IMG/VR virus record: IMGVR_UViG_2721755720_000004
Length of the DNA: 48,041 nt
Reading direction: 5' to 3' (one strand)
Source of the DNA: a virus
Lineage: Duplodnaviria > Heunggongvirae > Uroviricota > Caudoviricetes
Position 1 is the stretch's first letter. Each line of letters opens with the position of its first letter. Made by a program: the position numbers and the translations under genes. The notes beneath the pieces were generated by a model that was not told where the DNA came from, did not search any database, and was given only the letters and a program-made list of their open reading frames with translations. This document shows positions 23,450 through 43,699 of the stretch, piece after piece.

Positions 23450-23632
23450 TCCTCACCTCGCAAAAACTCTCACCTCACAATCACGACAAAACCGGTCATG
23501 TCCGGTTCACATGCTCATTTTTTGCGCATGTCCGGTTCACAGAAGACCTGTTTTTATATTTTTCATATAGTTAACTTGCAGAGAAACCGGACATGGATCC
23601 CGGAAAATTTTCATAAATAGTGAAAACGCGCG

Positions 23633-23644
23633 AGGTCGCCGCCC
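23633..23644 (-). other. cosN cohesive-end site (lambda type)
   Basis: Plus strand AGGTCGCCGCCC is the reverse complement of GGGCGGCGACCT, the lambda 12-nt cohesive end; sits about 185 bp upstream of Nu1. Confidence 0.8.
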
Positions 23645-23843
23645 CGTAGCCTGCCGGATCGCCGGAAAGGACCCACAAAATGATAATAATTATCATCTAC
23701 ATGTCACAACGTGCATCTACGCCATCAAACCACGTCAAATAATCAATTATGACGCAGGTATCGTATTAATTGATCTGCATCAACTTAACGTAAAAACAAC
23801 TTCAGACAATACAAATCAACGACACTGAATACGGGGCAACCTC

Positions 23844-24038
23844 ATGTCAACTAAGAATAGAACCCGCAGAACAACAACCCGCAACATCCGCTTTCCTAAC
23901 CAAATGATTGAACAAATCAACATCGCTCTTGATCAAAAAGGGTCCGGGAATTTCTCAGCCTGGGTCATTGAAGCCTGCCGTCGGAGACTAACGTCAGAAA
24001 AGAGAGCATATACATCAATCCAAAGTGATGATGAATGA
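23844..24038 (+). CDS. small basic protein, possible ribbon-helix-helix DNA-binding protein
   Basis: 64 aa, Arg/Thr-rich N-terminus then NIRFPNQMIEQINIALDQKGSGNFSAWVIEACRRRL; first ORF of the AT-rich cassette between cos and Rz. Confidence 0.35.
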   Translation: MSTKNRTRRTTTRNIRFPNQMIEQINIALDQKGSGNFSAWVIEACRRRLTSEKRAYTSIQSDDE

Positions 24039-24403
24039 ACATCCCGGTTTCTTCCACCATCGCACCGGAAAAGCGACTATGAGGGTAACCCTGCGTCTGT
24101 CAGCACAGTAAAACCCGGTATGCATCGCTTTTGATTATCTCCGCACACTCGTGCAGAGGAGTATCCCGTAATGGCTGCGGTCTCTGTTAATGCGGGAACA
24201 CGGCGACAATACAGCGCCAGTTATGGGTATGAAAATCCTCACCAGCGCAAAGCTATATCAACCTGTAGTGATGCAAAATTACCCGTAGCAAAAGGTATCT
24301 CCGCACATATGCAAGAACACAGCCTTAAAAACTCAGATGAAATAATGATTTGTTAAGATTTATATTATATGTTCGACATGGTACAACACTTAAGGGATGA
24401 AAT

Positions 24404-27707: not shown

Positions 27708-29642
27708 TTACGCGTTATTCACTTCCACCACAATGCTGTCAATCAGCACCGGGTATGTTGCACCATTAGTGATATCGGTCACACGCAACTTGTCTGCCGT
27801 AAAAATTCCGACAGTGGACTGCGACAGCATGAACGGCGTCCCGTCCTTACCATCAATGACCGGCGTCACCTCAATACTGTTGTTACCGGCGAAACGGAAG
27901 CCCAACGTATGCCATTCGTTATTAAATGCACCGAATGACCCCAGTTTCATGTTTTGCGCCGTATCGCCCTTGTGGTACATCACGTTAAGGTCTGTCGCAT
28001 CGCTCTGAACGTAAAAAGATGCCAGCAGGTTATGACCAGCATTACCTTCCAGGGTAACCCCTTGTGGCAGGGCAGAAACCGGCCAGTACAGCGCCAGTGC
28101 GTACTGATTAGCCGTAAGCGCGCCATCAAGTTTAAAACGACAACTGACAAGGCCGCCTTTGCCCAGCAGGTCGGCACCATTACCGGCATCATGTTCCAGG
28201 TACCAGGAGGATTTTCCCGTCGCTTTGGTAAGCTTCATCGCCTTACCTCCACTGGCTCCGGCATCATCCACAACAGCGGCACTACCTCCGCCAGCCCCCC
28301 AGCCCTGTGGAGTCAGTTGTCCTTCCGAATCGCTGGCCCTGTATGCAAACAGTGTTGTCATCCCGGTAGTTTCACCCGGTGATGTTGATGGAGTGTCAGG
28401 TGATGGCTTCTCATCCGGTGGTGTCACGGCCTGCCCGCCCAGCAGTTCAGCCGTGCGCCCTGCATGGAGCAGAATAGAGGAGGCCAGACGGTCAGAAATG
28501 ATGCCCCTGCGTGCCCATGAACTGAAATGGCTGTCACGCTGTGTCGAGACAAAACTGCCCTGGGTACGGGATGCCGCACCGTAATACCCGACAGCCACAA
28601 TATCCGGATCTTCCGTCGGAGCATTCGTTGGCGTGTTCTGTCCATTCTCATCCGTCAGGAACGGTACAAAGAAAATATTCTGAGTTTCCTTGCCTTTGTA
28701 GCCACCGTATACCGCCTCATATTTATCGGTGCCAGCGTTTTTCCAGTAATATGTCGTATCACCACAAATCCACGGCACCGTGCCAGCATTTCCACTCACA
28801 CACTGCACAGCAAGCGGAGACAGGTCAGTTCTGAACTGCTGAACCATGGTCGTGAATAAACCATTATGCTGCTGACTTCCCGATGCAAGGTCTGCTTCTC
28901 CCTGCATCCAGACCACTGCCAGAAGTTTGTTTTTCGGGTTCTTCGCCAGCGCCGCTCTGGTACGGCTTACCAGGTCCTGATACAGAGGTTTACCGACTCC
29001 CCAGCGTGAAGAATCAGCGGAAGCACCGCTGGCCTCACTGAATGAACCGTCCGGCCCGGTGGTGAATGCTGACCCGCCACGGCAACAGGGCACCAGAAGT
29101 ATCCCGGCATTCTGCGGGATATAAGGCAGCAGTTTTTTGGCAATATGCAGCCCCTGACTCACACAACCATACTGCCCCTTGTTCAGGTCAGCTTTTGGGT
29201 GGTTTATCCCGCTCATGTCCTGCACATCATGCAGGCAGTGGTCTGCCGGAATGATGTCATTGTATTTACACGGCGTACCACCTGGCGTGACCGTGCTGCG
29301 GCGTGCCAGTTGCTTAATCCGTGGGTCCGGGCGGTCAAATGAATCCGGTAACGGAAGCCCTTCACCATAGGCCATGCCATTTGACTGCCCCGCCAGAACA
29401 ACAACAAAGTAATATTCTGGCTCACTGACTGTGCTCATTACCGTACCGCTGTCACCCGACGGCTTCACCACAACAGGCGTGGTGACATCACCCTCCGCTG
29501 CAATCGCCTGCATCAGGGTATAAGGCGTAATAGCAACCGGACTGCCAAACGGCTGCCAGCCTTCCTTCAGTTTTTGTGACAGTCGCTCCGCAAGCTCTGA
29601 CGGTGAAGCCGCCCTGACCACACCATAATGCTTAAATGTCAT
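27708..29642 (-). CDS. nanS: sialate O-acetylesterase, prophage NanS-p type (N-terminal DUF1737-like domain, SGNH/SASA esterase core, C-terminal lectin-like domain)
   Basis: Start set at MTFKHYGVV, preceded by GGGAGGAG; LAGQSNGMAYGEG (GQSN esterase motif); size and position downstream of the late tRNAs as in Stx-phage nanS-p genes. Confidence 0.85.
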   Translation of the reverse strand: MTFKHYGVVRAASPSELAERLSQKLKEGWQPFGSPVAITPYTLMQAIAAEGDVTTPVVVKPSGDSGTVMSTVSEPEYYFVVVLAGQSNGMAYGEGLPLPDSFDRPDPRIKQLARRSTVTPGGTPCKYNDIIPADHCLHDVQDMSGINHPKADLNKGQYGCVSQGLHIAKKLLPYIPQNAGILLVPCCRGGSAFTTGPDGSFSEASGASADSSRWGVGKPLYQDLVSRTRAALAKNPKNKLLAVVWMQGEADLASGSQQHNGLFTTMVQQFRTDLSPLAVQCVSGNAGTVPWICGDTTYYWKNAGTDKYEAVYGGYKGKETQNIFFVPFLTDENGQNTPTNAPTEDPDIVAVGYYGAASRTQGSFVSTQRDSHFSSWARRGIISDRLASSILLHAGRTAELLGGQAVTPPDEKPSPDTPSTSPGETTGMTTLFAYRASDSEGQLTPQGWGAGGGSAAVVDDAGASGGKAMKLTKATGKSSWYLEHDAGNGADLLGKGGLVSCRFKLDGALTANQYALALYWPVSALPQGVTLEGNAGHNLLASFYVQSDATDLNVMYHKGDTAQNMKLGSFGAFNNEWHTLGFRFAGNNSIEVTPVIDGKDGTPFMLSQSTVGIFTADKLRVTDITNGATYPVLIDSIVVEVNNA

Positions 29643-29814
29643 TGCTCCTCCCGGACGGGATAATGTGTTAACTAAGATGAGAGAGCAGGTGACAGCCCCG
29701 GCCGCATGAAAGTTCTGAGAGGGAAGTGCTGCCTGCTGCTCCATTGCACAGATTAATTACTGTCTGGTAGTATTCAGTGGCTGATTAGAATACTTCACAT
29801 TTTGTTATTTTGTG

Positions 29815-29846
29815 CAGCCCGTTACCATTCGTAGCGGGCTTTTTTT
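29815..29846 (+). terminator. intrinsic terminator (plus strand)
   Basis: Hairpin GCCCG...CGGGC followed by TTTTTTT (gcccgttaccattcgtagcgggcttttttt). Confidence 0.5.
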
Positions 29847-29849
29847 GTC

Positions 29850-29876
29850 CATAAAAAAGCCCCTCCGGAGAGGGGC
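29850..29876 (-). terminator. intrinsic terminator (minus strand) about 30 nt downstream of repeat unit 1
   Basis: Minus strand GCCCCTCTCCGGAGGGGC then TTTTTT; 7-bp GC-rich stem with 4-nt loop. Confidence 0.6.
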
Positions 29877-29907
29877 ATACTAGCTATATATCCATTTATC
29901 ATTGGCT

Positions 29908-30037
29908 GCGTGGTGCCGGGTGCCTCCCGGTGAGCTCAGTCTGGTGTCACTGAGCCCGCACATTCTCGATCCAAGTTATCGTCGGAGATAATACCTGATA
30001 CACCAGACGCCCCTCCGCACAGGGGGATTCACCACGC
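29908..30037 (-). ncRNA. candidate structured small RNA, repeat unit 1 of 4
   Basis: 130 nt; terminal 8 bp GCGTGGTG/CACCACGC pair; conserved GCCGGGTGCCTCCCGGTG and AGGGGGATTC motifs; variable centre with its own 9-bp stem (GTCTGGTGT/ACACCAGAC). Strand inferred from flanking terminator and one G-U wobble in unit 3. Confidence 0.45.
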
Positions 30038-30264
30038 GCAGAGAAGGATACTGAACACTATTTTCTCCAGGCAATATGCAATAACATGAAGTGTGAGATG
30101 ACTTACAATTATAAAAAACAGCCTACAGAATACTCCTAAATAAAGCCATATCAAAATGAGTAACACAAAAAGGAACCAGGCAAAAATTTACGAGCAGGTA
30201 TTATCCAGCAACAGTTCAGACGCCATAACTTATTGCCGATAGCTACCATCAATAATTTCTTTCA

Positions 30265-30289
30265 TAAAAAAGCCCCTCTGAAGAGGGGC
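30265..30289 (-). terminator. intrinsic terminator (minus strand) about 30 nt downstream of repeat unit 2
   Basis: Minus strand GCCCCTCTTCAGAGGGGC then TTTTTT. Confidence 0.6.
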
Positions 30290-30316
30290 TGACATACGCA
30301 TTTGCTTTCATCATCA

Positions 30317-30439
30317 ATATGGCGCCGGGTGCCTCCCGGTGCTCCATAACTGATTAATATGGAACGCGGTTTCATTCAGTTGCATTCATGAATAACACTC
30401 TAATCAGTCCGCCCCGCCGCTTAGGGGGATTCGCCATAT
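30317..30439 (-). ncRNA. candidate structured small RNA, repeat unit 2 of 4
   Basis: 123 nt; terminal stem ATATGGCG/CGCCATAT, which covaries with the other units; same conserved 5' and 3' motifs. Confidence 0.45.
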
Positions 30440-30574
30440 AAATTGAAAGTACTGAACACATCTGTCACAAACAATATGCAATTGTATGAATTGTGAGATT
30501 ATTATCAATAACACAAAATTACAGCTCTAGTACATAAACAGCAGATTAAACAAGAACAACAAAAGTATTGAATT

Positions 30575-30698
30575 GCACGGTGCCGGGTGCCTCCCGGTGA
30601 ATTCTGCAATGACCAGACAGAATCCGCAACTTGCTACTAACGCTAATGCGACCAAGCCTCAGTCATTATGCCCCTCCGCACAGGGGGATTCACCATGC
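30575..30698 (-). ncRNA. candidate structured small RNA, repeat unit 3 of 4
   Basis: 124 nt; terminal stem GCACGGTG/CACCATGC (one C-A on the plus strand, G-U on the minus strand); conserved motifs present; no canonical terminator nearby. Confidence 0.35.
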
Positions 30699-30826
30699 GC
30701 TAAAAAAATACAAAACGTCACGTCACTCTGACAATACGAAGCACCATAAAATGTGAGTTATTTATCAATTCTTAATTCTGGTTACAGGAATATTCCGAAT
30801 CAAATCTTTAAAAAAAGAAATTCAAA

Positions 30827-30931
30827 TGCATGGTGCCGGGTGCCTCCCGGTGAACAGACCGTCCGTGATACCAGTCGGCAACACAGGAAATTAATGGTAT
30901 CACCCCACCGCACAGGGGGATTCACCATGCA
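30827..30931 (-). ncRNA. candidate structured small RNA, repeat unit 4 of 4
   Basis: 105 nt; 9-bp terminal stem TGCATGGTG/CACCATGCA; internal 9-bp stem GTGATACCA/TGGTATCAC; conserved motifs present. Confidence 0.35.
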
Positions 30932-31319
30932 GGCGTTTTCTTAGCAAACTAACTGCGCGCCCGGCAACTCCCAACCACATAAAACGTGGAGTTTGTAGCA
31001 TTTATGCACATAACTCACAGGGGTTATCTTAAAAAAAGCTGACCATGCTTCCCCGGCAACGCAATAACTTTATTCCCTGAAGTGGCATCCCCCGTATTGT
31101 CGGCAGGCTCAAAAAGGAGCCAGTCATCTGAGGATGACTGGAAAAAGGAAAGATAAAAAATTATTCATCATACAACCTTCGTTGCAGGGGAGAATCCTGC
31201 GGTGCAGCAACATACAAAAACATAAGCCAACTAACAATATGCAGGCATAGCATTTTCGGATTTTGTTATATGGCACGGTAACTGAATGCTTACCTGATAT
31301 ACAGTCCGGTATAAAGTTG

Positions 31320-31342
31320 CAAAAAACCGCCAGTTAAGGCGG
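31320..31342 (-). terminator. putative intrinsic terminator (minus strand) downstream of the tRNA pair
   Basis: Minus strand GCCGCCTTAACTGGCGG then TTTTTTG. Confidence 0.45.
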
Positions 31343-31585
31343 CATTCAAACAGACAACAGGATTTTTTCGTAATTTTAACAACTTCGGGGTGGCGCATCG
31401 TCAGCCCCTGTCAGGAAGTACCAGAACTCCCTCCAACAATATCCCCCCATTCAGCGTTATCAAACACAGCACAGAAACTATCAATGTTTGCTGTTACAGT
31501 TAGGGAAAAAACGATAAATACGCCACAGGCTCTTTTTGCTGTGAAGTAAAAACTGATCTGAAAGACTGCTCATCATTTATTTTGC

Positions 31586-31663
31586 TGGACCGTCACCGGG
31601 GACTCGAACCCCGCATTTTCAACATAAAAAGGTTGATGCTCTTTCCTGATGAGCTAGTGACGG
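31586..31663 (-). tRNA. tRNA-like gene with an 8-nt anticodon loop (identity undetermined)
   Basis: Hand fold: acceptor CCGTCAC/GTGACGG (7 bp), U8-A9, D-stem GCTC/GAGC, anticodon stem TCAAC/GTTGA closing loop CTTTTTAT (8 nt), T-arm CGGGG-TTCGAGT-CCCCG, encoded CCA. Needs tRNAscan-SE / ARAGORN. Confidence 0.5.
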
Positions 31664-31780: not shown

Positions 31781-32839
31781 TCATCCCTTCTGGCTGACTA
31801 AATCCTGAACTTCCCTGACCGTCTGCTCAAAACGCTCAGTCTCCAGCTCAACGCCAATCGCACGACGCCCCAGTGCCAGCGCCGCTTTGACTGTCGAACC
31901 CGACCCCATGAAGAAATCCGCAACCAGGTCACCCGGACGACTACTCGCTCTGATTATCTGCTGCAGCATTTCTGCCGGTTTTTCGCACGGATGTTTCCCG
32001 GGATAGAACTGCACCGGTTTATGCGTCCACACATCGGTATATGGCACCTGCGCCGTCACGCCAAAATACCGCCGCAGATGCTTATATTCACACTGCAGTT
32101 CCGCATACTGCCGGTTCAGTGAGGTATACGCGGCAACCAGCTGGTGGTGTGGCTTTTCCAGTTCACCGCACTGATGTTTCTCTTCTGCCACCCTGGCAAA
32201 CAGCGCCTGCAATTTCAGATAATCGCGTTCATTCGGTAACTGCCACTGACTGGTACTGAACCAGTGCGACACCATATTTTTCTTGCCCGTGGCCTCTGCA
32301 ATCTGTTTTGCCGTTATCCCCAGGGCTGCACGCGCATCACGAAAGTAAGAAATCAGCGGGGCCATCACATGCTGTTTCAGTTCCCTGCCCTTCGCACCAT
32401 AGCCATCATCTTTCGGAAGGTACGGCCCCTGATAATGTTCCGCAAACAGAATGCGCTCTGTGGCCGGGAAATACGCACGCAGGCTTTCCTTGTTGCACCC
32501 GTTCCAGCGTCCGGATGGCTTCGCCCAGATGATATGGTTCAGCACATTAAAGCGTTCACGCATCATGATTTCGATGTCGGATGCCAGGCGATGCCCACAG
32601 AACAGGTAAATGCTTCCCTCGGGCTTTAATACCCGCCAGAAGTGCGCCAGACACTGGTCCAGCCACTTCAGGTAATCATCATCGCCATTCCACTGGTTAT
32701 CCCAGCCATTGGGTTTTACTTTAAAGTACGGCGGGTCCGTGACTATCAGATCGACAGAGTTTTCAGGTAAGGTCTGGATAAATTCCAGGCAGTCAGCGTT
32801 GATTAACTCACAACTGGATATTTTTACAGTGTTAAGCAT
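31781..32839 (-). CDS. orphan DNA methyltransferase (amino-methyltransferase, N6-adenine or N4-cytosine class)
   Basis: 352 aa; motif IV LIVTDPPY near the N-terminus and AdoMet motif DFFMGSGST near the C-terminus (beta-type order); no adjacent restriction endonuclease. Confidence 0.85.
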   Translation of the reverse strand: MLNTVKISSCELINADCLEFIQTLPENSVDLIVTDPPYFKVKPNGWDNQWNGDDDYLKWLDQCLAHFWRVLKPEGSIYLFCGHRLASDIEIMMRERFNVLNHIIWAKPSGRWNGCNKESLRAYFPATERILFAEHYQGPYLPKDDGYGAKGRELKQHVMAPLISYFRDARAALGITAKQIAEATGKKNMVSHWFSTSQWQLPNERDYLKLQALFARVAEEKHQCGELEKPHHQLVAAYTSLNRQYAELQCEYKHLRRYFGVTAQVPYTDVWTHKPVQFYPGKHPCEKPAEMLQQIIRASSRPGDLVADFFMGSGSTVKAALALGRRAIGVELETERFEQTVREVQDLVSQKG

Positions 32840-32988
32840 GGATCATTAAGCCTGTCTCTGATAGGCTCATTCTGCTTTTGCGCAAAGCAGTGGGCCTGAG
32901 GTTTGCTTGTGATCCCGATGCATGAGCAGATGGCTGGTGAGTGCCTCTAACACCACCAGCCGCCCATTTACCACAAATAAAAAAGCCT

Positions 32989-33186
32989 TCAGGACTGAAG
33001 GCGTCTGTAACAACCGAACTGATAGTCTGCCAGACCCGCCATAACAAGCTGGGTCAGTATTAACTGGCAGCGCTCGCGTGAAAGGTAAGTATTCTGCGCA
33101 ATCTCCCCGACTGTCGCCGGTTCGGTGACACTTAATTCATTAAACACCACTCTGGCGGTTTCGGTCATATCCTGCTGTTTTAGCAT
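32989..33186 (-). CDS. hypothetical small protein (66 aa), possible winged-helix
   Basis: Start at MLKQQDMTE, preceded by AAGGGAAAAAGAC; no motif recognised. Confidence 0.4.
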   Translation of the reverse strand: MLKQQDMTETARVVFNELSVTEPATVGEIAQNTYLSRERCQLILTQLVMAGLADYQFGCYRRLQS

Positions 33187-33304: not shown

Positions 33305-33335
33305 TCATAAAAAACCCGCCAGGCGGCGGGGTGTA
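33305..33335 (-). terminator. tR'-like intrinsic terminator downstream of the late promoter
   Basis: Minus strand CCCGCCGCCTGGCGGG then TTTTTTAT, about 45-70 nt downstream of the promoter-like element, as for the lambda pR'-tR' short transcript. Confidence 0.55.
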
Positions 33336-33412: not shown

Positions 33413-34234
33413 CTATCGCGTTACCCTCTTCAACTGCCACTCTGCCCATGCCTCTGCAATATCAAACCGGACCACCAGCGTGTCATAGAATTGCTTAACT
33501 GTTTTTTCCCATGAAGCGCGTGTTATCTGATTTGTCACCTCACATATGGCATCAAATGCCTCCGTTGAAGGTAATCTTTCATAGCCACGCCCACCACAAC
33601 GCTGACAGTTTCTGAAAACCGGCATACCTCGTTTTTCAGACTCTTCACGATGAATGGCAACACCGCGCCCACGGCAATCTTTACAGGCAGTGGAGACCTC
33701 CCCCTTTCCACCACACTCCGGACAGGCAACTTTTACCACCTCCCTGACTTTTTTCCATTCCTCCCAGTAAGACGGATACACGCCTTTTGTACACTTTGCC
33801 CATACTGGCGGCTTACCATCCGGATACTGAATCTTGTTTGTAAAAATCTCGCTTTCAATAAATTTTTTTCCGTGACAGCATGGGCACTGTTTTTTGCTCG
33901 CCGCGCTCCGGGCATAATCCTCAAACGCATACGAAGCCATAATGCGCATCACTACCGGTTTTATTTCTGCCGGAAGTTTTCTTAACGCTGCCACGCGATC
34001 ACACCGACTGAGAGCGTATTCTGCCAGCAGTTCTGTTGCCCGCTCCCTGTCATTCATACTGATGCCCATTTTCCCAAGGAACGCAGAAAACCCCATCTCA
34101 GCCCGATTCTGTGTCATGCCCTGCGCTGCCATCACATCAGTGATACTCAGCGCATCTTTTGACGTTGAGGCCGATGCATCCGTCAGACCCGGTGATTTTG
34201 GGGAATAGTATTTTGGTAAATCTTCCAGTTTCAT
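33413..34234 (-). CDS. putative late-gene antiterminator (Q-like), DnaJ-type zinc-finger protein
   Basis: 273 aa with four CxxCxGxG-like motifs (CPCCHGKK, CPECGGKG, CKDCRGRG, CQRCGGRG); called Q-like by position (after the nin/rusA region, directly upstream of a pR'/tR'-like pair), not by confident sequence match. Confidence 0.5.
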   Translation of the reverse strand: MKLEDLPKYYSPKSPGLTDASASTSKDALSITDVMAAQGMTQNRAEMGFSAFLGKMGISMNDRERATELLAEYALSRCDRVAALRKLPAEIKPVVMRIMASYAFEDYARSAASKKQCPCCHGKKFIESEIFTNKIQYPDGKPPVWAKCTKGVYPSYWEEWKKVREVVKVACPECGGKGEVSTACKDCRGRGVAIHREESEKRGMPVFRNCQRCGGRGYERLPSTEAFDAICEVTNQITRASWEKTVKQFYDTLVVRFDIAEAWAEWQLKRVTR

Positions 34235-35526: not shown

Positions 35527-35527
35527 G

Positions 35528-35797
35528 TTACCTCCAGATACGTTGCTGGTATGTGCGGGATGAACGCGGTGGGCGTTCGGAATAAGGGAGCCTGACGGAG
35601 ATTATCCAGTGACGACGATCGAAGCTGAGATCTTTCTGAAACTCGTAACCACGTCTGCGGTAGCACTGAATCAGCCATTCGGCCTGTTCTTCAGTGCACG
35701 GGTCATGCTGGAACCAGTCAGATTTGAATGTGTGAGAACGCCGCCCATGCCTGCTGGCAAGGTCGGCAGAATTGTGCAATCTGGTATCGTGCGCCAT
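35528..35797 (-). CDS. hypothetical protein
   Basis: 89-aa ORF between hok and the HNH-motif gene; Arg-rich, no motif recognised; could be non-coding. Confidence 0.3.
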   Translation of the reverse strand: MAHDTRLHNSADLASRHGRRSHTFKSDWFQHDPCTEEQAEWLIQCYRRRGYEFQKDLSFDRRHWIISVRLPYSERPPRSSRTYQQRIWR

Positions 35798-35971
35798 CGG
35801 GATCTCCGGTGACGCAGCAGGTGCCAGTTGTTCAGGCTGACGTGCGAATTGTAAACCAGAATGCCAGGAAAAAACAAACCCCGCCGAAGCGGGTTAAGTG
35901 CGGGTGCATTGAGGATGCCTGACACATCAGAGGTGGGCGGGGATGGGATCAGTACCCCGCCCAGGTCACTC

Positions 35972-36127
35972 TTACTCCTCAGGTTCGTAGACTGTGAAAA
36001 CAGCGACCTCCGTCTGGCCGGTTCGGATTCGTACCTCGCAGAGGTCTTTCCTCGTTACCAGTGCCGTCACTATGACGGTTAAACAGATGACGATCAGGGC
36101 GATTAACGTCGCCTTTTGCTGCTTCAT
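35972..36127 (-). CDS. hok: Hok/Gef-family type I toxin
   Basis: 51 aa MKQQKATLIALIVICLTVIVTALVTRKDLCEVRIRTGQTEVAVFTVYEPEE, near-identical to the Hok/Gef/RelF family consensus; the in-frame upstream extension in the ORF track is not used. Confidence 0.85.
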   Translation of the reverse strand: MKQQKATLIALIVICLTVIVTALVTRKDLCEVRIRTGQTEVAVFTVYEPEE

Positions 36128-36372
36128 AGCCTGCTTCTCCTTGCCTTTCGGCACGTAAGAGGCTAACCTACATTTGTGAGACATAGATTGGGCCTCAGAT
36201 TAATGTTAAGCGTCTTGCAGGACGCGTTATGTTAACTGGGGCTTTTCTCTGTCTGCCTTACGGCGGCATGCCCGAGGCAGACAGCCTCAAGCACCCGCAG
36301 CAATTCTACTTAACTCTCGCTTTACAGCAAACCGTTTTTGCCCAATATGGGAATTCCCATATCGCAATGAAT

Positions 36373-36477
36373 TCAGTTCCCCAGCCGATCCATCAAAAAC
36401 ACAACCAGGCAGTAAACAATAACAACAGCAATAACAGCCAGAGCGCCTTCCATTGCCAGTGAAATATCATCCGACAT
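36373..36477 (-). CDS. small hydrophobic peptide (34 aa)
   Basis: Hand-translated MSDDISLAMEGALAVIAVVIVYCLVVFLMDRLGN, preceded by AAGGAGGG; one transmembrane helix. Confidence 0.3.
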   Translation of the reverse strand: MSDDISLAMEGALAVIAVVIVYCLVVFLMDRLGN

Positions 36478-36511
36478 ATTCCCTCCTTTGGTGTGAATCC
36501 CGGCGAACGTT

Positions 36512-36595
36512 TTACCCCCACCGACAAATAACATATACTAAAAAAGCGATAGCCATAGCAACGCCTACAATTGCAAATGCTTCAGGCCAGGTCAT
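36512..36595 (-). CDS. small hydrophobic peptide (27 aa)
   Basis: Hand-translated MTWPEAFAIVGVAMAIAFLVYVICRWG, preceded by GGAGGA; its ATG overlaps the stop of the upstream gene. Confidence 0.3.
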   Translation of the reverse strand: MTWPEAFAIVGVAMAIAFLVYVICRWG

Positions 36596-42126: not shown

Positions 42127-42167
42127 CTCACCAAACAACCAGTCACCAGTTAAGACACCGCAAAAAA

Positions 42168-42212
42168 AAGTTACCCATGGGTATTTACTTTTTAAATACC
42201 TATGGGTATCCT
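42168..42212. promoter_or_regulatory. leftward operator-like palindromes downstream of the repressor gene
   Basis: TACCCATGGGTA (perfect 12-bp palindrome) and TACCTATGGGTA, same consensus as the 41610-41706 sites; lie just upstream of the plus-strand early-left genes. Confidence 0.45.
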
Positions 42213-42394
42213 TCTTTTCATACCAACCCACCCCGCCCCACAGAACGCAGGGCAATACTTCGAGTTACCCGGCAGTGGTCAGGGGTTAAGTAGCCAGCCT
42301 GAGGCGTAAGAACATGACGGCAGGGTTCAACATTAATAACTATGCAGCAGGTTTTTGTTCCGCTCCCCCGGCGTTAAGGGGAAATGAGGTCAAC

Positions 42395-42547
42395 ATGGAT
42401 ACGCTCAATCTTGGTAACAACGAATCTCTGGTATGCGGTGTGTTCCCTAACCAGGACGGCACCTTCACCGCGATGACGTATACCAAAAGTAAAACGTTTA
42501 AAACCGCAGCTGGCGCGCATCGCTGGTTAGCAAGAAACTCTAACTAA
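42395..42547 (+). CDS. small protein, YdaF/DUF1391-like
   Basis: Start set at MDTLNLGNNESLVCGVFPNQDGTFTAMTYTKSKTFK..., preceded by GAGG; resembles a small Rac-prophage protein family. Confidence 0.45.
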   Translation: MDTLNLGNNESLVCGVFPNQDGTFTAMTYTKSKTFKTAAGAHRWLARNSN

Positions 42548-42660
42548 TGAAGTCTGGTAGTTAAGGAATCCTCCACGGGGAGAACTGGTGCACACGCGCC
42601 GGACACAAGCAAGCATCCGGCATGCTCTTTAACAATCTGGATATCCATAACAGTAACAAT

Positions 42661-42876
42661 CTACAGATTGCCGTTCAGTTTTCTGGCCAACTTCTCAATA
42701 GATGGAGGCGATACATAATCCGGATTTTTATTCATAATAAACTGATTTTCACAGTATAGGCACCTGCTTTTATGAAAAAACTCATATTCTCTAACCGGGA
42801 ATGGTTGAAGTATCGATACTATATTTTGTCCAAAACATTTTGGACAAAGATGCATGATTATGCTGCCGCCGTTCAC
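42661..42876 (-). CDS. small zinc-ribbon protein (hypothetical)
   Basis: Two CxxC pairs (CPKC...CLYC); AAGGAGGT upstream of a GTG start; AT-rich; competes with an overlapping plus-strand ORF. Confidence 0.35.
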   Translation of the reverse strand: MNGGSIIMHLCPKCFGQNIVSILQPFPVREYEFFHKSRCLYCENQFIMNKNPDYVSPPSIEKLARKLNGNL

Positions 42877-43699
42877 GGTTACCTCCTTCGAGTACACAAA
42901 AGTTCCCGACTCAAGTTGGTTAAGGATATAACCTTCCGTCTGAGCCTCAAAGTTTTCAAATTCTGCAATTTTAGCTTTGAGAGAAGCATTTATTTCTTAA
43001 TAAGTGCCCACCAGCTCAACGAGAGACACGCATTCGCGCTGAATAGATGCAAGCTTTGAGTTCAGTTCACCAATAGCCGCATTTACTTCAGCTTGAGTTT
43101 TTGCCTCGTTCATTAGTTTTGCAATCTGAGCGGTTTCACGAATAGCCGTCATTGCTGCCGTTAATTCAGCGATCACATTCAATACTCTTATTGTTGTTGT
43201 GGATATCCAGATTAACAAGATCCTTGTTGTTGGGGAATAACAGGTCCACCTCGCCTGACGTGGTTAAAAGCAGGCACACAACACGAAAGCGCTCGGCGAA
43301 GTTCGTCTCTCTGTACTTTGTCGTTAAATTTAATTCGACCGTGCGCTTCCGGTTGTGGCAATCCGCGAAATGGCGCGGCGGTAAGTATGGCGGGGTTATT
43401 CCTTCCCCCATTGAGGACACCGGGTTGTCAGGTTGACCATACGCTTAAGTGACACCCCAGCCACAACAACCTCTGTTATCACTTTTCTGGTGATTCGGCG
43501 GAAATGGATATCCGCCCTTTTTAAAGTGAATTTTGTGATGCGGTGAATGCGGCTATGCGCACGCGGAACAGTTAAAACAAGCGGTCTTTTACTTCCGTAA
43601 CAGACATCAACTAACAATCCGGCGTTAATTGTTAACTGGTTAACGTCATCTGGAGGCACCAGGCACCGCATCACAAAATTCATTGTTGAGGACGCGATA

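Follow-up and report, generated by a model that had tools for sequence, protein, structure and literature searches.

Four tandem STnc100 small RNA genes and no protein-coding cargo in the late-region slot of a lambdoid prophage

In lambdoid prophages, the region after pR' is a moron site that carries convergent genes for Hfq-binding small RNAs (sRNAs) (Tree et al. 2014, PMC4104026). In Sp5, EcOnc02 (AsxR) and EcOnc27 are located 3' of stx2B, and the same organisation is found in Sp3, 4, 9, 10, 11, 15 and 17, with convergent Hfq-bound sRNAs in at least eight Sakai prophages (PMC4104026). The Shiga toxin (Stx) genes stxAB have been described in a review as 'bookended' by Hfq-binding sRNAs (PMC7873438). 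EcOnc27/sRNA103 overlaps STnc100 (PMC12711010), which lies 75 nucleotides (nt) downstream of stx2 and has been detected in outer-membrane vesicles (PMC12370729). In enteropathogenic Escherichia coli (EPEC), the abundant sRNAs PasD1 and PasD2, which show Hfq-dependent stability and have targets captured by RIL-seq (ligation and sequencing of interacting RNAs), are encoded just upstream of an esterase gene (PMC8550237, Pearl Mizrahi et al. 2021). Homology between PasD and STnc100 has been reported, the PasA and PasD copies being described as far apart in the genome and not in tandem (Zhu, Shabalina and Storz 2026 preprint); tandem STnc100 arrays are not described in the literature cited here. 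The corresponding region is analysed below in a viral DNA of 48,041 nt (IMG/VR record IMGVR_UViG_2721755720_000004, hereafter the window), where the stretch between two late transfer RNA (tRNA) genes and the esterase gene nanS-p contains four tandem STnc100 genes and a short convergent RNA gene, and no credible protein-coding gene.

This non-coding stretch covers positions 29643-31585 (1943 nt), and every gene around it lies on the minus strand. Rfam identifies four tandem STnc100 (RF02076) sRNA genes on the same late-gene strand, all of them above the gathering score of 47 bits, and a terminator scan together with conservation reveals a short gene converging on the last copy:

30782-30960, minus strand: STnc100 copy A (Rfam 76.6 bits, E 1.7e-15; core intact)
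30530-30727, minus strand: STnc100 copy B (Rfam 101.5 bits, E 7e-22; core intact)
30260-30465 (30508 with promoter), minus strand: STnc100 copy C (Rfam 99.6 bits, E 2e-21)
29847-30067, minus strand: STnc100 copy D (Rfam 132.9 bits, E 6.5e-30)
29745-29847, plus strand: short sRNA-like gene converging on copy D

All four copies keep the multi-branch core, in which an 8-bp closing stem surrounds a CCCCU/AGGGG hairpin and a CCGGG-AGGCA-CCCGG hairpin. The closing stem covaries among the copies (GCATGGTG/CACCATGC, ATATGGCG/CGCCATAT, GCGTGGTG/CACCACGC), the pair ATATGGCG/CGCCATAT representing the compensatory changes of copy C. Minimum free energy folds regain the core, with its closing stem and both hairpins, for copies A, B and C; the fold of copy D is partly different and keeps the second conserved hairpin (box2) and the terminator. 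The copies are only 51-66% identical to one another, which indicates old paralogues or units assembled from different sources rather than recent duplicates.

The copies also differ in the signals that surround the core. The 3' Rho-independent terminator of the family (model positions ~173-200) is present in C and D and deleted in the alignments of A and B. Copy C is preceded by a near-consensus sigma-70 promoter (30508-30481, TTGATA-16-TACAAT), matched at 10 of 12 positions in the promoter scan, and ends in a predicted intrinsic terminator at 30290-30271. Copy D ends in a predicted intrinsic terminator at 29876-29859 and has promoter candidates weaker than that of copy C, and the -10 elements of A and B are degenerate. 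Over the whole stretch, 8 terminator-like sites are found against 2.8 ± 1.8 expected, and these collapse to five distinct hairpins. A preliminary description of this DNA, made from the sequence alone, had noted a structured repeat array and several terminators here.

The promoter of the convergent gene consists of a -35 element TTGCAC at 29745-29750, an 18-nt spacer and a -10 element TAGTAT at 29769-29774, and its predicted RNA of ~66 nt (about 29782-29847) is closed by a terminator at 29816-29840 followed by seven T. Promoter, 5' region and terminator are conserved in ~10 diverged loci among those fetched for comparison, where the stem sequence of the terminator varies and the hairpin still forms. 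The RNA and copy D have their terminators back to back, in the geometry seen in 933W. In position, the gene corresponds to the described anti-sRNAs, which are short genes (51-60 nt in the reference cases) that converge on an sRNA of the late strand at the moron site. The gene's alignment to AsxR is limited to the terminator tail, and the comparison with Rfam returned sub-threshold matches at chance level only (RybB-like, 21 bits; Esr41-like, 15 bits). Identity with AsxR or AgvB is rejected by both sequence and model, and the correspondence is accepted on position only.

The stretch is likely a lambdoid late-region cargo ('moron') slot, bounded by Q/pR', the methylase gene and the tRNAs upstream and by nanS-p and the lysis genes downstream, and filled here with RNA genes only, among which copies C and D and the convergent gene would act as Hfq-dependent regulators. 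The slot has RNA genes as residents; what it contains varies, this being one of several alternatives that recombination swaps between prophages. The layout is an ordinary variant of the arrangement already described for such phages. By analogy with homologues that have been studied, C, D and the convergent RNA would each use a promoter of their own in the lysogen. These three RNAs would then base-pair with host and prophage transcripts in an Hfq-dependent manner, as regulators or sponges, following the model of EcOnc27, PasD, AsxR and AgvB, for which such action is shown or suggested. Targets would be specific to each copy, as the differences among the copies in the single-stranded linker and central arms suggest; the predicted seed of PasD lies in the linker between core and terminator. 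Copies A and B would be made only as read-through or late (Q-antiterminated) transcripts, or be in decay, and may represent read-through products, cis elements or relics. The five stacked terminators would prevent expression of nanS-p and the lysis genes before induction, after which Q-modified RNA polymerase would read through the hairpins. The four diverged copies form a candidate multi-target regulatory cassette in gut E. coli.

Several points weigh against this interpretation. The promoter and terminator calls in this prophage are consensus matches; copies A and B, which lack a good -10 as well as a terminator, may not be genes in their own right; and the functional evidence for STnc100 homologues consists of overexpression effects and interactome data only. 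In addition, the AsxR (RF02703) and AgvB (RF02702) models have no match at E ≤ 10 within 29600-29900, whereas 933W, the positive control for the AsxR model, scores 88 bits. In favour of a CsrB-like sponge for CsrA, PasD2 has been reported as the most abundant RNA in CsrA ternary complexes, and both conserved hairpins contain GGA. This was rejected as the principal explanation of the array: GGA is not enriched in it (18 versus 15.8 ± 3.5 expected), and that of the first hairpin is lost in copies A and C.

On the late strand, the slot follows Q/pR' and precedes the holin and endolysin genes. Pfam searches and the Prokaryotic Genome Annotation Pipeline (PGAP) annotation of a prophage of E. coli CI5, to which the whole window is 99.9% identical, give the minus-strand gene order Q, a small hypothetical open reading frame (ORF), N6/N4 DNA methylase, two tRNAs, nanS-p-type esterase, DUF826, P21-type holin and lysozyme. 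Pfam, PGAP and ARAGORN agree on the framework of methylase, tRNAs, nanS-p, holin and lysozyme that had been proposed beforehand:

33413-34234, minus strand: antiterminator gene Q (Pfam PF03589, E 1e-51)
31781-32839, minus strand: DNA methyltransferase gene (N6/N4 methylase), upstream framework gene (Pfam PF01555, E 2.6e-45; same gene order in Stx2a phage Stx2_14040)
31667-31741, minus strand: late tRNA with anticodon CAT, counterpart of the Stx-phage ileZ (ARAGORN; Rfam tRNA, 47.6 bits; PGAP tRNA-Ile in CI5)
31586-31663, minus strand: second late tRNA, of Lys(UUU) type, related to phage argN/argO (ARAGORN; Rfam tRNA, 47.3 bits; PGAP tRNA-Lys, 78 nt)
29643-29781, minus strand: nanS-p 5' leader with GGAGG before the ATG (sequence reading, CI5 PGAP start, onset of Stx-phage homology)
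27708-29642, minus strand: nanS-p-type sialate O-acetylesterase gene, downstream boundary of the slot (Pfam SASA + DUF1737 + DUF6645; PGAP)

The same backbone is found in the Stx2a phage Stx2_14040, in the order methylase, ileZ, argN, argO, stx2A, stx2B, STnc100 (159 bits), a convergent small element, yjhS/nanS-p and holin, and the Stx-phage gene order on which the preliminary description relied therefore applies to this lineage. In phage WGPS6, the tRNAs are followed by stx2AB and then by STnc100 (154 bits), 75 nt past stx2B; in 933W, STnc100 (208 bits) comes after stx2B and is immediately followed by the convergent AsxR. The comparison confirms the shared flanks and places STnc100 beside stx. 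Between the window and WGPS6, DNA homology is limited to three sites, namely the start of nanS-p, copy D and the ileZ/argN tRNAs, the window tRNAs being ~80% identical to those of an Stx2 phage. Copy D corresponds to the STnc100 found after stx2B in Stx2 phages, with 75-83% identity; against the WGPS6 copy, identity reaches 82.7% over 185 nt and 75-76% over the whole unit.

The window copies agree with the STnc100/EcOnc27/sRNA103 genes in family model, core fold and strand, and in where they lie with respect to Q, the tRNAs, nanS-p and the lysis genes. The Stx2 phages have a single STnc100, whereas the window has four diverged copies in tandem, two of them without their own terminator, and no stx upstream. 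The pairs of Tree et al. 2014 (AsxR/EcOnc27 in Sp5 and 933W; AgvB/EcOnc06) exhibit the same back-to-back layout between the cargo position and the conserved esterase ORF, but the convergent RNA of the window belongs to a different sequence group and the window lacks a cargo coding sequence. PasD2 of EPEC E2348/69 lies directly upstream of a sialate esterase gene, has a related fold and scores 41.4 bits on the STnc100 model. Its best match in the window is copy B, whose 3' arm resembles it, with ~80% identity over 49 + 36 nt of the 172-nt query and a global identity of 48-52%; none of the window copies shows BLAST similarity over >75% of the query, the measure used for PasD by Zhu et al. 2026. 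The PasD copies are reported to be dispersed, in contrast to the tandem copies of the window. Other prophages with this backbone carry protein-coding cargo, the window none: stx2AB in Stx2_14040 and 933W, a TolA-like gene in LD39-1, LR-51 and M9, and a hypothetical gene with LpxR and IraM in A8. Flanking modules are common to these cargo states and the window: on the left the methylase, the tRNAs, a 625-nt leader and copy A, on the right nanS-p, the convergent RNA and an STnc100 copy. Modestly new are the array of four, the lack of a terminator of their own in two of its copies and, as described below, the homology breakpoints where one RNA core ends; none of these points overturns current understanding.

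Of 5426 complete E. coli genomes, 16 contain the full four-copy interval, and about half of these full-length matches are in isolates from mice or other rodents. A version without cargo, in which two STnc100 copies come after three tRNAs, occurs at ≥80% coverage in 318 of the 5426, and the phage collection contains no near-identical phage genome. Beyond E. coli, an 18-mer of the second conserved hairpin is found in many Enterobacterales species and in IMG/VR contigs. Synteny was assessed in 164 fetched loci with a recognisable core. Where detected (31-37 of the 164), Q or methylase homologues are always upstream on the same strand, and NanS, holin and lysozyme homologues (13-42 of the 164) are downstream on the same strand, one upstream lysozyme match excepted. 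Most sampled loci are single-copy; tandem arrays of 2-5 copies account for ~10-15% and span Escherichia, Enterobacter, Superficieibacter and a Pantoea plasmid.

This plasmid, pAPP145_2 of Pantoea sp. App145 (400 kb), carries four Rfam STnc100 matches (five cores by pattern) within ~1.1 kb at one locus (L060) and a further two to three STnc100 at another (L046). The units of this plasmid are very close, with ~130 nt between some boxes. The Salmonella Hfq-binding sRNA isrI (RF01392) lies beside or within STnc100 arrays at five loci from other enterobacterial prophages and viral contigs (L198, L036, L159, L181, L200) and is absent from the window.

The rival explanation that survives best, although it is unlikely, regards the array as mostly inert recombination debris from exchange between co-resident lambdoid prophages, in which at most D and perhaps C works, and A, B and the upstream element X (31113-31243) are decaying relics. 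The missing terminators and degenerate -10 elements of A and B are in line with such decay, as are the poor -10 of element X in the window, where M9 and LD39-1 have a good one (TAATAT), and the rarity of the full interval. Homology breakpoints also coincide with unit boundaries. Three architectures (L003, L004, L247) match the window at 87-90% identity until the last base pairs of core A and then diverge (~30820-30826), the loss of homology falling in all three within a few bases of the 3' end of this core. In A8 (L247), the left module shares 90% identity with the window, methylase to copy A inclusive, and is followed by the cargo named above; in M9 (L004), the TolA-like gene is inserted between copies A and B. 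The debris explanation is opposed by the state of the cores themselves, which are intact in A and B: box2 is invariant, box1 almost invariant, and the closing stems retain their pairing. The A-type copy is moreover kept at ~90% identity in ~490 genomes, and terminator-less units ~253 nt apart, like A and B, recur in unrelated viral contigs (L146, L161, L198), which argues for selection on the core.

The position of the breakpoints suggests that the conserved STnc100 core marks a recombination joint, and hints at a route of cargo exchange between lambdoid phages. A broader model is offered tentatively. The core would combine a reusable module boundary with an sRNA scaffold, and arrays with or without terminator would constitute a cassette system, in which cargo (stx, TolA-like, LpxR/IraM) and seed-bearing linkers are swapped at boxes of 20-30 nt and terminator-less copies such as A double as leaders for the next insert.

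In a further explanation, less probable than the debris one, the STnc100 core acts in cis, in the late transcript or as a cargo leader (processing or stability element, insulator, 5' leader), and not, or not only, as a trans-acting sRNA. The constant position and orientation of the core in the late operon are consistent with it. So is the placement of individual copies: the terminator-less copy A lies directly upstream of the TolA-like cargo in a left-hand segment shared by ~490 genomes (~90% identity; LD39-1, LR-51 and M9 were inspected) and of the hypothetical gene with LpxR in A8, and copy D lies ~200 nt upstream of nanS-p. Against it, homologues are seen as discrete, abundant RNAs in uninduced cells, namely the Hfq-bound EcOnc27 and PasD1/2 with their Hfq-dependent stability, and copies C and D end in strong terminators that would cut off the downstream genes unless Q acts. 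Regulation in trans by the array RNAs, as set out above, remains the preferred reading.

The absence of protein-coding genes from the slot was examined at several levels. The start of nanS-p most likely lies at 29642: a GGAGG ribosome-binding site is found just 5' of this ATG, PGAP places the start there in CI5, and the homology to Stx-phage nanS-p begins exactly at this codon. The non-coding stretch therefore begins at 29643 and not at 29745, the boundary given in the preliminary description, whose statement that no credible ORF separates the tRNAs from nanS-p is borne out. The interval is the largest ORF-free gap of the window, with a GC content of 44% against 51% for the window, and its longest complete ORF has 63 amino acids, compared with 88 ± 20 in 1000 shuffles. 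PGAP of CI5 has no annotation between the esterase and the tRNAs, and a six-frame Pfam search of the interval found no family, RIP and SLT_beta included. The eight longest ORFs of the interval have only weak PHROGs matches (E ≥ 0.007), to a family of unknown function and on the antisense of the conserved RNA boxes. These matches concern the plus-strand ORFs 30573-30731 and 30753-30944 and phrog_24488, the matching residues being antisense to STnc100 copies A and B; judging from this overlap, phrog_24488 may have been built from spurious ORF calls over an RNA gene. For annotation, ~2 kb of such a prophage is left blank or given spurious ORFs by gene callers.

It is very improbable that the interval hides one or more small protein genes below 65 amino acids, for example for a hydrophobic peptide. 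A hydrophobic ORF of 30 amino acids (31161-31253) does lie in the most conserved stretch, an ORF of 55 amino acids (31231-31398) has a plausible ribosome-binding site, and small DUF3927-type genes occupy the same slot in E2348/69. In M9 and LD39-1, however, the shorter ORF has lost its ATG and contains indels or a frameshift, and the longer one runs across terminator T1, with 4 of 4 differences from A8 in its first ~20 codons being non-synonymous. Both were rejected as coding sequences, neither being kept as a reading frame in relatives; the lack of a Pfam match, the weak PHROGs matches and a longest ORF below random expectation point the same way.

Between the late tRNAs and nanS-p there is neither stxA/stxB nor a recognisable remnant of them, as judged by six-frame Pfam, BLASTP, tblastn and blastn. 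The preliminary description had called for a tblastn check for StxA/StxB remnants, and with Stx2A and Stx2B from Stx2a_WGPS6 as queries against six frames, the best E values inside the interval are 47 and 9.6. A sensitive blastn of the interval against 50,697 phage records, hundreds of Stx phages included, matched 269 records, many of them Stx phages. The matches are confined to query positions 1-597, the STnc100 end, except for a 32-base match to one non-Stx phage, and none of them is to stx. The choice that had been posed between an ancestral state without toxin and a replacement of toxin genes by RNA genes was the wrong frame: STnc100 coexists with stx in Stx2 phages and is thus not a replacement for it. 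It is more likely that this prophage never carried stx: the slot shows no scar, and many enterobacterial genera have STnc100 at this same position. These data cannot prove in which direction the change went. In these many genera, stx is to our knowledge rare or absent. That the prophage once carried stx and lost it, leaving the slot empty, is the least probable explanation of all: the backbone of methylase, ileZ/argN-type tRNAs, STnc100 copy and nanS-p is common to the window and Stx2a phages, but stx similarity is nil at the protein, profile and DNA levels, no homology to stx-flanking sequences was found in the window, argO is absent, and the 625 nt after the tRNAs together with copy A are instead common to non-Stx prophages with other cargo. 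The 'toxin slot' of Stx-type prophages is in this respect a general cargo site, whose constant residents are small RNA genes and not toxins, and which a prophage can fill with regulatory RNAs alone.

Two further elements lie between the tRNAs and the array:

31326-31463, minus strand: promoter-like site (31463-31436, TTGATA-16-TATTGT) and terminator T1 (31343-31326), from the promoter and terminator scans
31113-31243, minus strand: conserved non-coding element X, closed by terminator T2 (31141-31120), from conservation

The T1 hairpin (GCCGCCTTAACTGGCGG followed by a T-run) is identical in A8, whose region is ~90% identical overall, and the unit could yield a short terminated transcript or serve as an insulator. 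Element X is a candidate for a fifth sRNA on the minus strand. It begins with a TGCATATTG motif, found also where copies C and D are predicted to start. Its identity to A8 is 100% over ~90 nt, and Qin/DLP12-like prophages match it at 76-87%. In T2, the stem (CCAGTCATC/GATGACTGG) is kept, with the loop CTCA in the window versus TGAG in A8 and M9, as if inverted. Rfam assigns no family to the upstream 660 nt that contain T1 and element X, the best being a sub-threshold, chance-level match (frnS, 17 bits), and the upstream 625 nt have no phage match even at low stringency.

The second tRNA (31586-31663) has one extra T that creates an 8-nt anticodon loop (CTTTTTAT), for which ARAGORN gives the 4-base anticodon 'tttt'. 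CI5 has the same 78-nt form, and the counterpart in the relatives A8 and L136 has a normal 7-nt loop and reads as tRNA-Lys(UUU). The gene also aligns to phage arginine tRNAs (argN; tRNA-Arg UCU in M9). The extra T may reflect a homopolymer slip, an assembly error or a frameshift-suppressor-like tRNA.

Upstream of the tRNAs, the terminator scan detects a strong terminator at 33315-33330 on the minus strand (CCCGCCGCCTGGCGGG with a T-run), ~80 nt past the Q stop codon, which is probably tR'. A further one at 32985-33002, on the same strand, precedes the methylase, so the methylase and the tRNAs would also need Q read-through or promoters of their own. Other stretches of the window without an ORF of at least 100 amino acids are 42127-43395 (1269 nt), 35527-36591 (1065 nt, including hok/sok) and 23450-24403 (954 nt). 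In the second of these, upstream of the Q region, the sok antitoxin RNA (36122-36296, minus strand; Rfam RF01794, 116 bits) adjoins a gene for a hokD-type toxin that is annotated in CI5.

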